Shown here in pieces: positions 32,767-53,935 of a stretch of 64,000 bases of DNA (position 1 is the first letter of the stretch; the number at the start of each line of letters is the position of its first letter). Source of the DNA: Patescibacteria group bacterium (GTDB lineage: Bacteria; Patescibacteriota; Minisyncoccia; Minisyncoccales; Staskawiczbacteraceae). Location of the stretch: NCBI GenBank assembly GCA_038063015.1, contig JBBTVX010000001.1, positions 69,202 through 133,201 on the forward strand, in the 5' to 3' direction. The notes beneath the pieces are model-generated. The model did no database searches, was not told the origin of the DNA, and was given only the letters and a program-made list of their open reading frames with translations. Made by a program: the position numbers and the translations under genes.

Positions 32767-33321
32767 CTAATTAGGACGAGGGAAATTATATCTTTTAATA
32801 ATTTTATAGGCGTTTTTTCTAAATAATATATTTAAAATATATCCCGTTAAAATACCCAAGATAGCGCCTGCTAAAATATCAGACGGCCAGTGGATGCCGA
32901 CAAAAACGCGGGCTAAAACAACAAGTAAGCTGGCAATATAAAATATAATTCCGATTTTTTTGTTATAAAAATAAACAATTGCGGATAAGGCAAAATAAAA
33001 GCTGGCGTGGCCGGAAGGAAAAGAGGCTTCTTTCGCGTCATAATCTATGAGCAAGTTTACGTTATTTGTAATAAACGGCCTTGGCCTGAACCACATCCAA
33101 CGGATAATTTCGGCTAATATAAATCTTGTAAAAGCCGCGACAATGACGGCCTCTAACGCCATTTTCCAATATTTCTTGAAATTTATAACTAAAAAAAGAA
33201 CCAAAACTGCGGCTAAAATGTATTCTGAATATTTAACGATAAAAAATCCAATAAAATCCAGCCAATACCATTTAAAAGCCAGTCCGTTAATTAAATTAAA
33301 TAGATATAAATCTATACTCAT
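32767..33321 (-). CDS. PAP2-family lipid phosphatase (undecaprenyl-diphosphatase-like)
   Basis: PSGH and SRV..G.H...D motifs (FPSGHASF, ARVFVGIHWPSD). Confidence 0.8.
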   Translation of the reverse strand: MSIDLYLFNLINGLAFKWYWLDFIGFFIVKYSEYILAAVLVLFLVINFKKYWKMALEAVIVAAFTRFILAEIIRWMWFRPRPFITNNVNLLIDYDAKEASFPSGHASFYFALSAIVYFYNKKIGIIFYIASLLVVLARVFVGIHWPSDILAGAILGILTGYILNILFRKNAYKIIKRYNFPRPN

Positions 33322-34565
33322 ATTGGGAGGGGGAATTTTTTACAAAGATTTTTTATTTCTCCGCGAATTTTCTTTGCGCTTTTTGGATTTGAAATAACCT
33401 CGTTTATCCAGCCTGCTATTTTTTTCATTTCTTTTTCTTTCATTCCTCTTGTTGTAATTGCCGGCGTGCCCATTCTTATGCCAGACGGCTTAAAAGGCGG
33501 AGCGGGGTCAAAAGGAATACTGTTTTTATTTATCGTAATCCCGGCTTCCTCCAATAAATCTGCCGCTTCCTTCCCCGCTATATTTTTGTTTCTTAGGTCA
33601 ATCAGAATTAAATGGTTTTCCGTTCCGCCGGATATTATTTTAAAGCCGTATTTTTTTAGTTCTTCGGCCAGCGTTTTTGCGTTTTTTACAATTTGGCTTG
33701 AATATTTTTTAAAAGCAGGGGCTGACGCTTCTTTCAAGCAAACTGCAATCCCGGCTATCTGATGCATATGCGGTCCGCCCTGAAATCCCGGAAAAATTGC
33801 CTTATCAATTTTTTGTGGCAATTCAGAATCTTTTTTAATACCCCTTTCCGTTACCATAATCATTCCCCCTCTCGGACCTCGCAATGTTTTATGGGTTGTA
33901 GTGGTAATAATATGAACATAAGGAACGGGGCTCGGGTGAGCTCCGCCAACTACCAACCCTGCAATGTGGGCAATGTCGGCTACTAAATATGCTCCAACTA
34001 AATCTGCGATATCTCCAAGTCGTTTCCAGTCAAATATTCTTGGATAAGCAGTAGCTCCCACGAAAATAAGCTTTGGGTTGTTTTCTTTGGCTAATTTTTC
34101 AATTTCGTCATAATTTATCAAGTGCGTTTTTTCATCAACGCCGTATTGCATCGATTTAAAAAACTTTGCAGAAAAATTTACTTTCCAGCCATGAGTCAAA
34201 TGGCCCCCCATAGGCAAAGCCATCCCCATTACTGTGTCTCCCGGCTGGCATACGGCCATATAAACAGCGGCATTGGCAGGTGAGCCGGAATATGGCTGAA
34301 CATTGGCGTGGGGAACGCCAAATAGTTTTTTTGCCCTATCCCGACAAAGATTTTCCAAAACATCATAATATTTACAGCCGTTATAATATCTTTTTCCGGG
34401 GTATCCTTCTGTGTATTTATCAGACAAAACAGAACCAAGCGCTTCTCTTACGGCCGGCGAAGAATGATTTTCAGACGGAATCATTTCCAAAGATGTCTTT
34501 TGCCTTTCTGTTTCCAATTCAATTAGTTTTGCAACCTGCAAATCTTGTTTTTTTAATTTTGCCAT
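33318..34565 (-). CDS. glyA: Serine hydroxymethyltransferase
   Basis: TTTTHKTLRGPRGG PLP-lysine motif. 415 aa. Confidence 0.95.
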   Translation of the reverse strand: MAKLKKQDLQVAKLIELETERQKTSLEMIPSENHSSPAVREALGSVLSDKYTEGYPGKRYYNGCKYYDVLENLCRDRAKKLFGVPHANVQPYSGSPANAAVYMAVCQPGDTVMGMALPMGGHLTHGWKVNFSAKFFKSMQYGVDEKTHLINYDEIEKLAKENNPKLIFVGATAYPRIFDWKRLGDIADLVGAYLVADIAHIAGLVVGGAHPSPVPYVHIITTTTHKTLRGPRGGMIMVTERGIKKDSELPQKIDKAIFPGFQGGPHMHQIAGIAVCLKEASAPAFKKYSSQIVKNAKTLAEELKKYGFKIISGGTENHLILIDLRNKNIAGKEAADLLEEAGITINKNSIPFDPAPPFKPSGIRMGTPAITTRGMKEKEMKKIAGWINEVISNPKSAKKIRGEIKNLCKKFPLPI

Positions 34566-34628
34566 ATTGTTTTTCCTCTTTAATTATATTTTAGTATATC
34601 AAATTCCCCTTTTTATTCAAACAACAAC

Positions 34629-49525: not shown

Positions 49526-50520
49526 TTAAAAAGCCTGATATTTTTCTGCAAATAACTCATAAAATAATCTTTTTTTAATCTTATAAGTATTCCCATGTTT
49601 TAGCAAGCCCAAATAAGAATTAAAAGTTTCTGCTTTGCTATTGTATTTTATCCTATTAAACACTCTTCTCTTGGTGGCGGGTCTTAATATCTTGTAATCT
49701 GGAAAATTTATCCAGCCAAGAAAATCAATGCCAGAATAAATTGTCTTAATAAAAACTTTATCTGGATGCAATGTGAGTTTTAATTTATTCTGCAAGAAAT
49801 TTCCGATTATTGGAATCAAATTTTCCAAATGATCTCTGTTTTGAGACAAAATAACAAAATCGTCTGCGTATCTTATGTAATATTTTATTTTTAATTTATG
49901 TTTTATAAATTGGTCAAACTCGTTTAGGTAAATATTGGCGAATAATTGGCTGGTTAAATTTCCGAGCGGCAAGCCGTTTGGTTTAAAACTTTCAATTATT
50001 TCTCGAGAAGATTTAAGATATTTTTATCAGTAATGTGTTTTTGTAAAATCTCAATTAAAGTTTTTTGGTCAACGCTGGCAAAAAACTTTTTAACATCGCA
50101 CTTTAAAATCCAACAGGGTTTAGTGTTGTTTTTTGAAACAATACGGCTGAAGTCTCCAAATCTGTTTATTGCCTTGTGCATTCCCTTATTATTTCTGCAG
50201 GAAAACGAATCTGAAATAAATGTTTTATCAAAAAACGGGTATAATATACGATATACGGCATGGTGTAATAATCTGTCTCGGACGTCGGCTTTATGTATTA
50301 TCCGTGGCTTAGGGTCGTTTATTCTAAAACGTTGATATCCACCATGTTTGTAAACATGATTTTTTAAATCTTCATACAGTGATAAAATATTATCCATTAA
50401 ATAGAACGAAAACTCGCAAACGTCTTTTTTATTCCTCTTTCCCTTAATGAATTCTTCCCAAGCAAAAAGTAAATTATCAATACTAATAATGTCTTCAAAT
50501 TTATAAAAATTATTTATCAT
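49526..50520 (-). pseudogene. DGR-type reverse transcriptase, split into two ORFs (49996..50520 and 49526..49972) by a 1-nt frameshift in an A-run
   Basis: LPLGNLTSQLFANIYLNEFD is the DGR-specific (I/L)GxxxSQ motif, and YADDFVILS is the catalytic motif. Adding one A in GAGAAATAATT (complement of 49994-50007) gives the continuous reading LEKIIESFKPNGLPLGNLTSQ. Confidence 0.85.
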
Positions 50521-50527
50521 TTATATT

Positions 50528-50932
50528 ATGAACCAATTAAATTTTCACAATCAAAATATAAATAATAATACGGCTTCTAATCCCCCCCCCAGCCAATTTA
50601 GCTTAGGTATTATTCAAAAACTAACTCAGGTTTATAAATTGTGGCACGAATATTTTCCCTGTTTTCCAAAAAGTTCAAGATATACTCTCGGCGTAAAAAT
50701 TGACTCTTTGTTTTTGGGAGTAATTGAAGAAATAATAAAAGCAAGTAGTTCGGACAAAACAGAAAAATTAATCTTTCTTAGGGTTGCTTCTGTTAAATTA
50801 GACCTGTTGAAATTTTTTTTGCAAATTGCTTGGGAAATAAAATCTTTAAACCACAAAAAATATATAAATCTTTCTGAAAAACTAAATGAAGTTGGAAAAA
50901 TGCTGGGGGGATGGATTAAATCGTTAAAGTAA
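50528..50932 (+). CDS. avd: Four-helix-bundle protein (Avd, DGR accessory variability determinant; 23S rRNA IVS protein family)
   Basis: YKLWHEYFPCFPKSSRYTLGVKIDSLFLGVIEEI...LDLLKFFLQIAWE is typical of the family. The gene lies next to the RT and TR. A C9 tract at 50582-50590 encodes PPP. Confidence 0.8.
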   Translation: MNQLNFHNQNINNNTASNPPPSQFSLGIIQKLTQVYKLWHEYFPCFPKSSRYTLGVKIDSLFLGVIEEIIKASSSDKTEKLIFLRVASVKLDLLKFFLQIAWEIKSLNHKKYINLSEKLNEVGKMLGGWIKSLK

Positions 50933-50953
50933 AAACCACCTTAAAAAAGGTGG
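50929..50953 (-). terminator. Hairpin plus T-run on the minus strand immediately 3' of the TR
   Basis: CCACCTT-TTTT-AAGGTGG followed by TTTTT on the minus strand. On the plus strand it is followed by A's, so it is a poor avd terminator. Confidence 0.45.
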
Positions 50954-50967
50954 AAAAATAAAGAGAG

Positions 50968-51095
50968 TTGCGGGAGGCGACGAGCCGACAGTTAGGATTG
51001 AAGTCGTTATCAAGCCAGTTGTAGCTCAGATACCAGCGGTTGCCGTTCCAATAAAGGTAAAACACATAGCGGTTGCCATTCGGACTCTGCCAAAC
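50968..51095 (-). repeat. DGR template repeat (TR)
   Basis: 128 nt aligning without gaps to 51507-51634. The minus strand reads ...AATGGCAACCGC...TGGAACGGCAACCGCTGG...TACAACTGG..., which is rich in AAC/AAT codons. Confidence 0.85.
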
Positions 51096-51389
51096 AAAAA
51101 TGTATAAAGCGTCATCTATATCACTGCCCCTTGAATACTCTCGGAGCTGTATCTAATTCGGTATCTAAAATACCTTAACGCCCTATACCAAGTATCTTCG
51201 TTTTTTACTAATCAGGAGCGACTCTTCCAGGGGCCGTAACCACTGGAATTCTGCGCTTTCCTGAAATATAGAATTCGGCCACCTGAAGTCGTAACCGTTG
51301 CATTACAAATTTATCTGTTTTTATACTTCATCCCATCATCCACTGACCGCAGACTTATTAGCCTAATATCCAATTTTAATTTTATCATA

Positions 51390-51436
51390 AAAATACAAAA
51401 AAAGAAGTCCTGTTTTGCAAAAGCAAAACAGGACTT
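51390..51436 (-). terminator. Intrinsic terminator of the DGR target gene
   Basis: AAGTCCTGTTTTGC-TTTT-GCAAAACAGGACTT followed by CTTTTTTTGTATTTTT on the minus strand. Confidence 0.75.
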
Positions 51437-51499
51437 TACGCCAAGGATTCAAGGAACCAAAATTTGTGGAAAACCAAGGTTCCAAGCACCCAAGTTTTT

Positions 51500-52057
51500 C
51501 TAATACTTGCGGGAGGCGACGAGCCGACAGCGGGAAATGAAGTCGTTATCAAGCCAGCTGTAGCTCAGATACCAGCGGCAGCCGTACCAATAAAGGTCAA
51601 ACACAGCGCGGTAGCCACTCGGACTCTGCCAAACTTCAGGAAATACTAAGTAATATTTCCTCCAGTCAGCGGGAATCCTATCTTGATCCCGAAGCATGGC
51701 TTCGGCATGACGAAGTCCGGTAAGAATGCCTTGTTTTTTGGCTATCTTAACCATTTCTTCGCCACCGAGGCAACTTTCTCCCGGTTCCAGAAACTCCGCC
51801 AGAAACGACTCGAATTCGCCTTCTTCGGCGACAACCGGCTCGAGACATTCCCAGTTAGTCATATCGCGTTCGACGTTAGCAATGAGTTCGAACACGAGAT
51901 CGACCACGACCTTAGCCGCGCTGATCAGTACTAACATCAACTTATCCAATATGCCATCGGCATTTTGGCCAAGCGAGGTGACGTGGCTGGGGGTGAAACC
52001 CTTGGCCTCAAAAGCTTCCATCAACTGATGCGTCTGACCCTCAGAATAAGAAGACAT
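51500..52057 (-). CDS. DGR variable (target) protein with a C-terminal CLec-like variable region; no signal peptide seen
   Basis: The start was chosen at MSSYSEGQ (AAAGGA RBS). The C-terminus WQSPSGYRAVFDLYWYGCRWYLSYSWLDNDFISRCRLVASRKY is encoded by the VR. Confidence 0.8.
   Translation of the reverse strand: MSSYSEGQTHQLMEAFEAKGFTPSHVTSLGQNADGILDKLMLVLISAAKVVVDLVFELIANVERDMTNWECLEPVVAEEGEFESFLAEFLEPGESCLGGEEMVKIAKKQGILTGLRHAEAMLRDQDRIPADWRKYYLVFPEVWQSPSGYRAVFDLYWYGCRWYLSYSWLDNDFISRCRLVASRKY
51507..51634 (-). repeat. DGR variable repeat (VR)
   Basis: There are 14 mismatches to the TR. Ten of them fall at TR adenines on the coding strand. The 24-nt GC-rich 3' end is identical in both (IMH-like). 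Confidence 0.85.
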
Positions 52058-52207
52058 GTCTTCTGTCCTTTCTGGCACGTGTGCCAACAAATCAAGCTTG
52101 ACTAACCGACATGGCAGTCATAGCCAGAAAACAACAAATTTCTTTATTGATTTTTGGCTATGACCGCCAGTTTTTCAAATATTTTTATTAAAAAGAACTA
52201 TATTTTT

Positions 52208-52236
52208 TATATTAACATATCTATATATCTTGTCAA
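52208..52236 (-). promoter_or_regulatory. Candidate promoter of the DGR target gene (TTGACA-16 nt-TAATAT on the minus strand)
   Basis: The hexamers were read directly. It leaves a ~150-nt leader containing the 52113-52168 hairpin. Confidence 0.4.
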
Positions 52237-52324: not shown

Positions 52325-53935
52325 ATGAGTAAAAAATTTAATCTATTTTTATTAAATTCAACCACCGACCTTCATCCAAGGACGTGGATTTGCGCGGGTG
52401 GAAAAAATATTGGCAGGTTATTTAAAAAGTTAAAAAAAGAAGTTGTTAAAAGTAAAAAATTTTGCAAACAATGGTCATATAATAATTTAAACAATAATCT
52501 CAGATGTTCGCCATCCACAATCAAAGAAACCCTACGATTAGAACGCAAATTTTATCCAATTCCTATAATATTAGAACTACTAAAATTCACTAAAAATAAA
52601 AATAAGTTTTTAAATATATTTAAAAATAACATTGAATATTTAAAGGTAAATTCTGCCTCTGCTAAACCTATAAAAGCTGTAAACAGATTAAATAACAATT
52701 TAGCTAAAATTTTAGGAGCATTTATGGCCGATGGCAGCCTTAGTGTGCAAGTTATATTTTCAGACAAAGATCCTATAAGGTTAAAAATATTAGAGCGGAA
52801 ATTGAAAAAAATAAAAATTCATTATTCTGCAGGTAATTGCCCGTCCAGAAATCAGCGCTACCTCAGCATACAAGTTAACTCTAAAAATTTAAGATTTCTG
52901 AACGAATTTCTCAAAAATTCGGGCCTCTTAATTCAAACACATTATAGTATAGGGCTTACTGATGCGTATAAAGATAATGTTGAAATGTTTACTAAGTGGA
53001 TAAAAGATGAATTTAATATTAATCCAAACCGATTTGAAAAAAAGAAAAATGCATGGCGCGTCTGCTTTTCGAATAAAATTTTGGCTAGATATTTGATCAT
53101 ATTTTTTGAAGCTATTCCGGGACCAAAATGTTTTACCGCTTTTGAACCTAAAATTATAAAAACATCTCATCTGGGGATAAGGAAATCTTTTGCCAGAGGA
53201 GCATTAATGTTTGATGGGTGCGTTTCAAAAAATAATAAAATTTTATTCAGTACGGTTAGTAAAAATTTTCATAGTTCCATAAAACAAATATGGCTAAAAG
53301 ATAAAATTAAATTTGGAGAATCGATACTTACACGAAAATCTGGCTATAATAATAAAATTACAGCATATAATCTTTTTACTACCGCAGAAAACAAAAAGAA
53401 TAAACTTTTCGCTTATTTCGAACCAAACACTCAAAAATGGAAACTTCTTTGCTGGCTAAGCGGCAATCTAGAAAACCCTCCAATTATTAAATCTGAAAAA
53501 TGTTTTTCTATATATGAACTAATAAAATTGATAAGGAGGGCTAAAATTTGTGATACGAATTTCATTAAAAATCATTTTAAATTAACCCATACTACAATTA
53601 GAATTTATTTAAAAATTTTGAAAAATCAGAGAAAAATAAGATTAACAAATAAACCAAAAAATTTAAGCATTTATATTGATCAAAATGCAACAATCTTTCT
53701 GGAGAAAAACTTTCACAATGCAATGTTCAATAAAATAAAAATTGACTTTGGGAATTACAAAAATTGTGCGAAATTCTTGGATATCCACAAAGCAACCTTT
53801 TCCAATTGGCGAATAAAAAAAACCATGATTCCTCTTCGCGTCCTTAAACAATTTTGTAATGTATTAAAAATTAATTTTAATAAAGTTAGTAAAAATGTAG
53901 AAAAAATTGACAGAGAAATCGCGGAAATTATTTAA
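52325..53935 (+). CDS. Free-standing double-motif LAGLIDADG homing-endonuclease-like protein with flanking HTH-like regions
   Basis: LAKILGAFMADGSLSV and SFARGALMFDGCVS form two LAGLIDADG-type motifs about 160 aa apart. The gene is very AT-rich. Confidence 0.65.
   Translation: MSKKFNLFLLNSTTDLHPRTWICAGGKNIGRLFKKLKKEVVKSKKFCKQWSYNNLNNNLRCSPSTIKETLRLERKFYPIPIILELLKFTKNKNKFLNIFKNNIEYLKVNSASAKPIKAVNRLNNNLAKILGAFMADGSLSVQVIFSDKDPIRLKILERKLKKIKIHYSAGNCPSRNQRYLSIQVNSKNLRFLNEFLKNSGLLIQTHYSIGLTDAYKDNVEMFTKWIKDEFNINPNRFEKKKNAWRVCFSNKILARYLIIFFEAIPGPKCFTAFEPKIIKTSHLGIRKSFARGALMFDGCVSKNNKILFSTVSKNFHSSIKQIWLKDKIKFGESILTRKSGYNNKITAYNLFTTAENKKNKLFAYFEPNTQKWKLLCWLSGNLENPPIIKSEKCFSIYELIKLIRRAKICDTNFIKNHFKLTHTTIRIYLKILKNQRKIRLTNKPKNLSIYIDQNATIFLEKNFHNAMFNKIKIDFGNYKNCAKFLDIHKATFSNWRIKKTMIPLRVLKQFCNVLKINFNKVSKNVEKIDREIAEII

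Follow-up and report, generated by a model that had tools for sequence, protein, structure and literature searches.

Does the retroelement cassette in this groundwater Ca. Staskawiczbacteria genome still rewrite its target gene, or has it stopped doing so? The cassette lies in a 64-kb stretch of contig JBBTVX010000001.1 (the window, by which we mean the whole stretch of DNA analysed; coordinates are positions in it) and has the parts of a diversity-generating retroelement (DGR): a reverse transcriptase (RT) gene, an avd accessory gene, a template repeat (TR) and a target gene that carries a variable repeat (VR). The locus is a genuine DGR of a known type that is common in the Candidate Phyla Radiation (CPR; Patescibacteria), and its RT gene has a 1-nt deletion that is fixed in this genome. 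Taking the evidence as a whole, we are fairly confident that it is a DGR of a Patescibacteria lineage that was once active and that has most likely been switched off, or is decaying, through the deletion in its RT.

The cassette, its past activity and the state of its reverse transcriptase

TR and VR are direct repeats of 128 nt each that align without gaps at 89% identity, and the repeat finder returned the same pair that an earlier note on this DNA had delimited (Table 1). TR is intergenic. VR lies inside a protein-coding gene, where it forms the final 128 nt ahead of the last codon and the stop of a 185-aa minus-strand open reading frame (ORF; 52057 to 51500), in agreement with the position at the end of a 185-aa protein gene described before. 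When TR was compared with the whole window by blastn it matched only itself and VR (E = 9e-45), the next-best matches being 11–17 nt long. The two repeats share their final 24 nt exactly (CTGTCGGCTCGTCGCCTCCCGCAA); this segment is GC-rich and the flanks diverge directly after it, an arrangement that resembles the paired initiation of mutagenic homing (IMH/IMH*) elements, and the alignment thus bears out the identical IMH-like 3' end that the earlier note reported.

Among the 14 mismatches between the repeats, ten fall on TR adenines, of which there are 28 in 128 nt (hypergeometric P = 3e-5), and four fall elsewhere (T27G, T36G, C99T and T101C). The earlier reading of TR as rich in AAC and AAT codons, at which VR encodes other residues, holds with eight such codons. 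Fifteen further loci have the same layout, with TR/VR pairs of 110–139 nt and 77–100% of the mismatches at TR adenines; the adenine specificity of the window locus, 71%, is the minimum of the family (other loci give 13/13 to 21/22). Some DGR detection pipelines set a threshold of 75–80% adenine mismatches, and the 10/14 of the window is below it.

TR, VR, target and RT are on the minus strand and avd is on the plus strand, in the order target with VR, TR, avd and RT. This layout, with avd reversed, recurs in every complete related cassette retrieved, and the inverted orientation of avd is kept in every related locus examined; it is the usual layout in CPR DGRs and no anomaly. The RT carries both LPLGNLTSQ and YADD, the motif 4 and YxDD signatures of the DGR clade, so that the two motifs named in the earlier note (GNLTSQ and YADD) are indeed there. 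The neighbouring product of 134 aa, which had been called an Avd-like four-helix bundle, matches Pfam bAvd (PF22296) and the NCBIfam equivalog model DivGenRetAVD (NF033474), the latter barely, at 80.1 bits for a cutoff of 80. With RT, Avd, TR, a VR-bearing target and an adenine bias all present, the assignment to the DGRs, a class that the note regarded as common in the CPR and not new, stands.

Contigs nearly identical to the window come from Hainich groundwater metagenomes. One of them (L001) is 99.3% identical to it over 6 kb and encodes a target whose first 144 residues are the same as those of the window, with the differences thereafter confined to VR; this VR differs from its own adjacent TR at 15 positions, and all 15 are adenines (P = 3e-12). 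In a third VR allele (L057), 11/11 differences from a TCC-type TR are at adenines. Because these other VR alleles of the same target differ at TR-adenine positions only, the element must once have been active. The avd-proximal TR reads CCT at positions 99–101 in every contig, and all three VR alleles read TCC. A change from TCC to CCT in TR thus accounts for two of the four non-adenine mismatches in the window, and all three VR alleles predate it, which argues against recent homing.

Scaffold L019, which comes from the same aquifer and is about 97.7% identical to the window wherever the two share sequence, has the VR of the window without any change; P0002, whose middle region differs, has it almost unchanged. 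The target alleles are mosaic: P0003 matches the central 62 residues exactly and has a different N-terminus. Most simply read, VR alleles of older date are being brought into new combinations by recombination as the machinery decays. As a separate observation, target alleles in the population combine N-terminal, central and VR modules (P0002, P0003). L001 also contains a tandem duplication of target, leader and TR (L001:4650-7550; coverage about 6x) with a 13-nt microhomology at its junction; its two TRs are not the same, and among all TRs found the upstream copy alone (AAT TCC AAC) agrees with the VR alleles at positions 99–101.

The RT is divided between two ORFs in different frames (50520 to 49996 and 49972 to 49526), and in a tblastn comparison RT residues 174–331 map to 50002–49529. 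With one base restored at GAG/AAATAA, the RT protein aligns to ten intact close homologues without an indel. At the break, related RT genes have the sequence L-[KEQR]-E-I-I, and nucleotide comparison with seven family RTs indicates the same deletion. The 120 homologues listed of 8000 scored are single-ORF RTs, 67–81% identical, 113 of them 318–357 aa long and all full-length apart from three short entries; few are named in their sources, and the names given are of the Patescibacteria group. Since the listed homologues are single ORFs, the break is specific to this lineage and is not a conserved recoding signal. The site has neither a slippery heptamer nor a long homopolymer. Seven contigs carry exactly this truncated product of 174 aa and L002 is identical at the break site, so that assembly error is not the cause of the split. 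With an RT that has recently become a pseudogene, the element is not the complete one that the earlier note described. Its description of a clear hypervariation system applies to past diversification, recorded in alleles that differ at TR-adenine positions, and fails for an autonomous active element, the RT being split. As judged from the assemblies, the cassette in this genome is most likely switched off or decaying and would be a record of past hypervariation.

L019 carries the same target, TR and avd together with an intact RT of 335 aa. Over the first ~340 nt this RT is identical to that of the window and over the remainder it is about 75% identical. Three contigs (L001, L003 and L004) stop at this breakpoint, which is what two coexisting RT alleles would lead one to expect. 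In L019 (1432-4133, compared with window 49560-50520 and 32859-34568) the serine hydroxymethyltransferase (SHMT) gene directly follows RT, and in the window it lies 15 kb off; the scaffold has an N gap at the poly-G tract described below, and the RT–SHMT adjacency and its deviant avd 5' end are treated cautiously.

Several points weigh against a switched-off element. Four of the 14 mismatches are off adenines, and after the TR mutation has explained two of them T27G and T36G are left over. The 3' part of the RT shows no second lesion or added decay, so that the inactivation is recent, or else recoding of an unrecognised kind could still allow the gene to be expressed. Beyond the 64-kb window, the genome could hold a second RT that acts in trans, and, with inactivity judged from assemblies, ongoing diversification is possible.

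Among the alternatives, the most probable is that the DGR still works, its RT being made by a −1 ribosomal shift at GAG-AAA-UAA or its TR RNA being used in trans by a paralogous RT–Avd pair from elsewhere in the genome. In favour of this are a 3' half of the RT that keeps all catalytic motifs without a second lesion and an avd that is in frame in the window. The first route would have to operate at a site that is not a slippery heptamer, in a family with no split gene among the listed homologues. For these two reasons programmed frameshifting was rejected as the principal explanation; an alternative genetic code was also rejected, the blocking stop being TAA and the neighbouring genes all reading normally in table 11. 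The second route gains from a leader that is conserved among RTs of about 70% identity and that a paralogue might therefore recognise, and from related contigs that hold two DGR RTs (P0103 and P0151 on one 222-kb contig); however, no second RT, Avd or TR was found within the window. Against either route, the TR mutation postdates all VR alleles and the same VR stands in three backgrounds (the window and L019, and nearly unchanged in P0002). We consider continued function unlikely.

That the split is an assembly or sequencing error in an ordinary intact DGR is very improbable: the related contigs are of low coverage (3–15x, from the contig names) and homopolymer-type errors do occur, but the missing base is outside any long homopolymer, and the seven contigs and L002 agree on the break. 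The idea that part of a gene was duplicated, or that the repeat is a remnant of a pseudogene, beside an unrelated retron or group II-type RT, which could draw on the labels 'retron-type' and 'maturase family' given to homologous RTs in some databases, is effectively refuted by the adenine bias here and its near-exclusive form in the 15 related loci; also against it are an Avd that passes a DGR-specific NCBIfam model, LGNLTSQ in the RT and the lack of any Rfam group II or retron RNA match. We retain the reading of a once-active DGR whose RT gene is broken by a deletion and which is most likely inactive.

Table 1 Features of the DGR locus and of related loci (window coordinates unless a locus is given)
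Feature	Position	Strand	Basis and remarks
RT gene, 3' part, −1 frame (IIESFKPNGLPLGNLTSQ ... YADD ...)	49526..49999	−	RVT_1 profile positions 119-203; no more lesions
Frameshift site GAG/AAATAA	49996..50004	−	1 nt missing relative to homologues (GAG GAA ATA ATT), near 50001/50002
RT gene, 5' part, 174 codons, premature TAA end	49996..50520	−	RVT_1 profile positions 8-100; 100% identical to L002 ORF
avd (bAvd accessory protein)	50528..50932	+	PF22296, E = 1.3e-18; opposite to RT, TR and VR
Homopolymer C9 (avd sense) / G9 (RT sense)	50582..50590	.	Between avd domain and RT start
Hairpin CCACC-N8-GGTGG + U run	50926..50953	−	Terminator scan; 15 nt past TR
P4 3' strand (CUCUCUUUAUUUUU)	50954..50967	−	Directly 3' of TR; pairs with leader at about 51195-51206
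TR (template repeat)	50968..51095	−	28 adenines, 8 AAC/AAT codons; repeat finder, TR-VR alignment
Structured 5' leader of TR RNA, helices P1-P6	51096..51371	−	Covariation; P4 5' strand at about 51195-51206
Putative extended −10 (TGATAAAAT) of TR-RNA promoter	51379..51387	−	Conserved in 11/11 aligned loci, right after target terminator
Intrinsic terminator of target gene	51405..51436	−	Terminator scan; 14-bp stem + T run; stem covaries across loci
VR (variable repeat)	51507..51634	−	IMH-like segment is the final 24 nt, 51507-51530
Target gene, 185 aa	51500..52057	−	Helical N-terminal region + C-terminal 120-aa domain with VR
Long hairpin in target 5' untranslated region	52112..52169	−	Inverted repeat, 27-nt arms, 85% complementary; covariation in homologous loci
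Target promoter TTGACA-16-TAATAT with TG	52209..52236	−	Top promoter-scan match, 10/12; conserved upstream of homologues
Orphan targets / leader remnants	L005:6001-6567, L006:6001-6576, L009:2039-2125, L040:5655-5757		

The template RNA, its leader and the poly-G tract

The 400 nt between VR and TR are conserved far above what would be expected from the roughly 50% identity of the targets. Past the target terminator, conservation extends over a TGnTAnAAT block and the leader behind it, which is 230–300 nt long across loci and roughly 275 nt in the window. The block may be part of a promoter that belongs to the TR RNA itself, with a start at about 51370. When the leader was folded with RNAalifold over ten loci, the model comprised 64 pairs with 97.6% of cells paired, compared with 43–52% in slid controls, and 27 pairs with double-sided changes, compared with 4–7; the observed values were reached by 0/500 shuffles. 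The percentage of paired cells is inflated, as the structure was derived from the same sequences, and the counts of compensatory changes are the stronger evidence.

One helix, P4 (11 pairs, 98% of cells paired across the ten loci), joins the leader segment AAAAAAYRAAGA to UCUYUUYRUUUUU immediately past TR, so that the template is bracketed. The hairpin that follows is retained in related loci with wholly different stem sequences (CCCATC/GATGGG, CTTCCGC/GCGGAAG); it resembles a terminator and may serve as a stem-loop for the binding of Avd. The leader lies upstream of TR in every DGR of the RT clade examined, including those with unrelated targets (L051, L052). A covariance model of P4'-P5-P6 has a single match in the window (51100-51208, 96 bits), and in related loci it matched directly upstream of TR everywhere checked, members outside the seed included. 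Rfam at gathering thresholds detected only a tRNA in the whole window, and a permissive Rfam scan of 50850-51550 gave chance-level matches only, with no RT-1..19 motif. A spacer-like RNA within the antisense of avd, in the interval between TR and RT, was considered and rejected (consensus −6.5 kcal/mol, with a positive covariation term).

A poly-G tract followed by ATTAGARG (both in RT sense) is conserved throughout the clade, with lengths of 5, 7, 9, 10, 11 and 12. Its length varies among near-identical loci: 9 in the window and 10 in L001 and L057, and 11 in L013 and 12 in L039. Only at some lengths, that of the window among them, does an upstream ATG share the frame of avd. The tract may be a phase-variable switch or a promoter-spacer element. 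Against a phase-variable role, homopolymer lengths are unreliable in low-coverage assemblies, and two scaffolds break there.

For the once-active, now most likely silent DGR that we favour, these elements suggest the following course. TR would have been transcribed as its own unit from a promoter near 51380, giving a folded leader of ~275 nt, the 128-nt TR and a tail made up of a short stretch that pairs back to the leader and then the hairpin and U run. RT and Avd would have copied TR into cDNA with misincorporation opposite adenines, and the cDNA would have replaced VR, anchored by the common GC-rich 24-nt 3' end. Replacement of VR would recode some 12 positions in what would be a small lectin-like binding domain, probably intracellular, and the present VR alleles would be products of this earlier activity that were later reshuffled by recombination. 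The parts themselves, the adenine bias, the recurrent frameshift, the other VR alleles and the RNA covariation are observed, and the ends of the transcript, the role of the leader, the loss of activity and the function of the target are what we infer here.

The target family and the loss of DGRs

The target belongs to a family of ~401 members of roughly 185–195 aa, with no Pfam domain and no informative name, and the genomes that hold its homologues are Ca. Staskawiczbacteria, Parcubacteria or Patescibacteria. The protein matched nothing in Pfam, NCBIfam or PHROGs, and a sequence-profile search with the family matched no chain in the PDB. No signal peptide or transmembrane segment was seen by eye. 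The absence of a recognisable N-terminal domain and of a signal peptide had been remarked before, and agrees with these searches and inspection. In the alignment of homologues, invariant W, L and V alternate with hypervariable positions that stand exactly at the TR AAC/AAT codons, and within VR an invariant aromatic scaffold (W, Y, L) is interleaved with variable positions.

An AlphaFold2 model of the full-length target was mediocre (pLDDT 69), and Foldseek searches with it in the PDB and BFVD gave no useful matches. Residues 66–185, modelled with a 97-sequence alignment, reached pLDDT 92.7 and pTM 0.85. The predicted chain runs from two short strands through three helices to five strands, of which VR encodes the final four together with half (the C-terminal one) of the strand before them. 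The top Foldseek neighbour of this domain is the C-terminal domain of Bdellovibrio Bd2740 (probability 0.84, TM 0.53/0.56), and C-type lectin (CLec) neighbours (BDCA2, MCL, rhodocetin, CD72) follow at TM 0.44–0.50; every neighbour has E of at least 0.26 and a probability of at most 0.84, and no solved DGR variable protein is in the top 50. The earlier note had proposed structure prediction as a check for a CLec fold. A confident domain model was obtained, and its resemblance to CLec proteins is weak (TM 0.44–0.56 with those E values); a CLec-like fold is plausible for the predicted domain.

The target genes are unusual in composition. The target gene has a GC content of 51% and the window 35%. 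DGR targets in the window and in L005, L006, L009, L051, L052 and L054 are GC-rich throughout (GC 50–57%, in genomes of 32–43%), with a GC content at third codon positions of 0.53–0.72 compared with 0.24–0.34 in neighbouring genes. This holds for unrelated target families, and the RT and avd genes are not GC-rich. A recombination hot spot with GC-biased gene conversion would be one possible cause.

Other features of the target locus are also shared. The strong promoter and the hairpin ahead of the gene (Table 1) are conserved in most other genomes compared. The first 13 codons (52019-52057) encode a peptide, MSSYSEGQTHQLM, that is identical across subfamilies otherwise only about 30% identical. 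Right after VR and the stop, 51440-51500 on the minus strand contains four exact CTTGG copies and two variants (TTTGG, CTTGA) within ~60 nt. The columns of these repeats are invariant in 11 loci, with a small covarying hairpin among them in most relatives, and they may be a target-recognition element.

In roughly half of the homologues of the target, TR, avd and RT are all missing from the vicinity. In L005 the target stands between genes for glycyl-tRNA synthetase (GlyRS) and an M16 peptidase, which is the synteny of the window minus the cassette. In L006–L008 it stands between leucyl-tRNA synthetase (LeuRS) and pyruvate:ferredoxin oxidoreductase (POR), a site at which L052 has a full DGR. 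Weak leader remnants (36 and 25 bits) lie downstream of two orphan targets. Orphans at syntenic sites and leader remnants together make it appear that loss of the DGR, with the target left behind, is recurrent. Relative to the syntenic L005, the window has a 536-aa ORF (52325-53935, plus strand) inserted between GlyRS and the target; two motifs seen in it by eye (ILGAFMADGSL, FARGALMFDGCV) suggested a LAGLIDADG protein, an identification that found no support in Pfam, NCBIfam or PHROGs.

The comparison set shows DGR loss under way, in a frameshifted RT, a mutated TR, orphan syntenic targets and leader remnants. It also defines an unannotated target family of ~400 members with a confident domain model, and it gives a covariation-backed secondary structure of the TR RNA for the architecture with inverted avd. 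Leads of moderate interest come from the leader RNA, from the homopolymer as a possible switch and from the GC-rich composition of the targets.

Comparison with known systems

A DGR clade restricted to Patescibacteria, with targets that typically lack transmembrane or known domains, has been described by Roux et al. 2021 (PMC8144416). As far as the consulted parts of that paper ('DGR clade 2') and of Wu et al. 2018 ('B3 architecture', PMC5758913) describe CPR DGRs, the window locus agrees with them: its RT is 67–81% identical to listed Patescibacteria RTs, avd and TR differ from the Bordetella type in their order and orientation and match B3 by description, the target is small and without a transmembrane or known domain, and the source is groundwater. 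It is unlike them in its frameshifted RT. Within the same parts of these papers, a limited portion of the literature, there is no mention of a structured TR leader, a poly-G tract between avd and RT or GC-rich targets. The window DGR is one more, degraded example of a class that is abundant in the CPR, and it leaves the picture of that class unchanged.

The target resembles the small CLec variable proteins AvpA of Nanoarchaeota (PMC5006420) and TaqVP of Thermus aquaticus (PMC6328139) in that VR is C-terminal and accounts for the final beta-strands of a compact alpha/beta domain and in that an invariant aromatic scaffold (W, Y, L) is interleaved with the variable positions. It is unlike them in its family-specific helical N-terminal region and in having no sequence match in the PDB.

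With the DGR of Bordetella phage BPP-1 (mtd-avd-TR-brt; Handa et al. 2018, PMC6182149; Handa et al. 2024 preprint, 10.1101/2023.10.23.563531) the window shares an adenine-specific TR/VR pair, Avd and a GC-rich common 3' end. The RNA of the phage element forms a duplex between a segment upstream of TR and one downstream of it ('cPRT Stop'), to which P4 of the window is alike, and in both there is a stem-loop just downstream of TR. Unlike in BPP-1, avd is inverted and placed between TR and RT, and no structured spacer (Sp) follows TR, after which come only about 40 nt with the terminator-like hairpin at their end. The conserved RNA structure is mostly 5' of TR, and the antisense-avd region is without conserved structure. 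The bracketing duplex also differs: the 3' strand follows TR without a gap, and the 5' strand precedes TR by about 100 nt. In Bordetella, the downstream spacer takes part in the cPRT Stop duplex, in the stem-loop bound by Avd, in the primer strand and in the elements that bind RT, and similar duplexes and stem-loops were predicted in 207/278 DGRs, from 40 nt upstream of TR only (10.1101/2023.10.23.563531).

One tentative interpretation, which we think possible and on balance somewhat doubtful, is that in this lineage the RNA elements for priming and positioning have moved from the downstream Sp of Bordetella to the 230–300-nt upstream leader, closed by the duplex between leader and 3' tail, with the transcript ending at the post-TR hairpin and with expression of the machinery switched in addition by a hypermutable poly-G/C tract where avd and RT meet. 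If so, a CPR lineage would have a rearranged DGR ribonucleoprotein with built-in phase variation. The sole mechanistic model of DGR priming and termination is that of one phage element, and a CPR lineage without a downstream spacer RNA poses a testable question to it.

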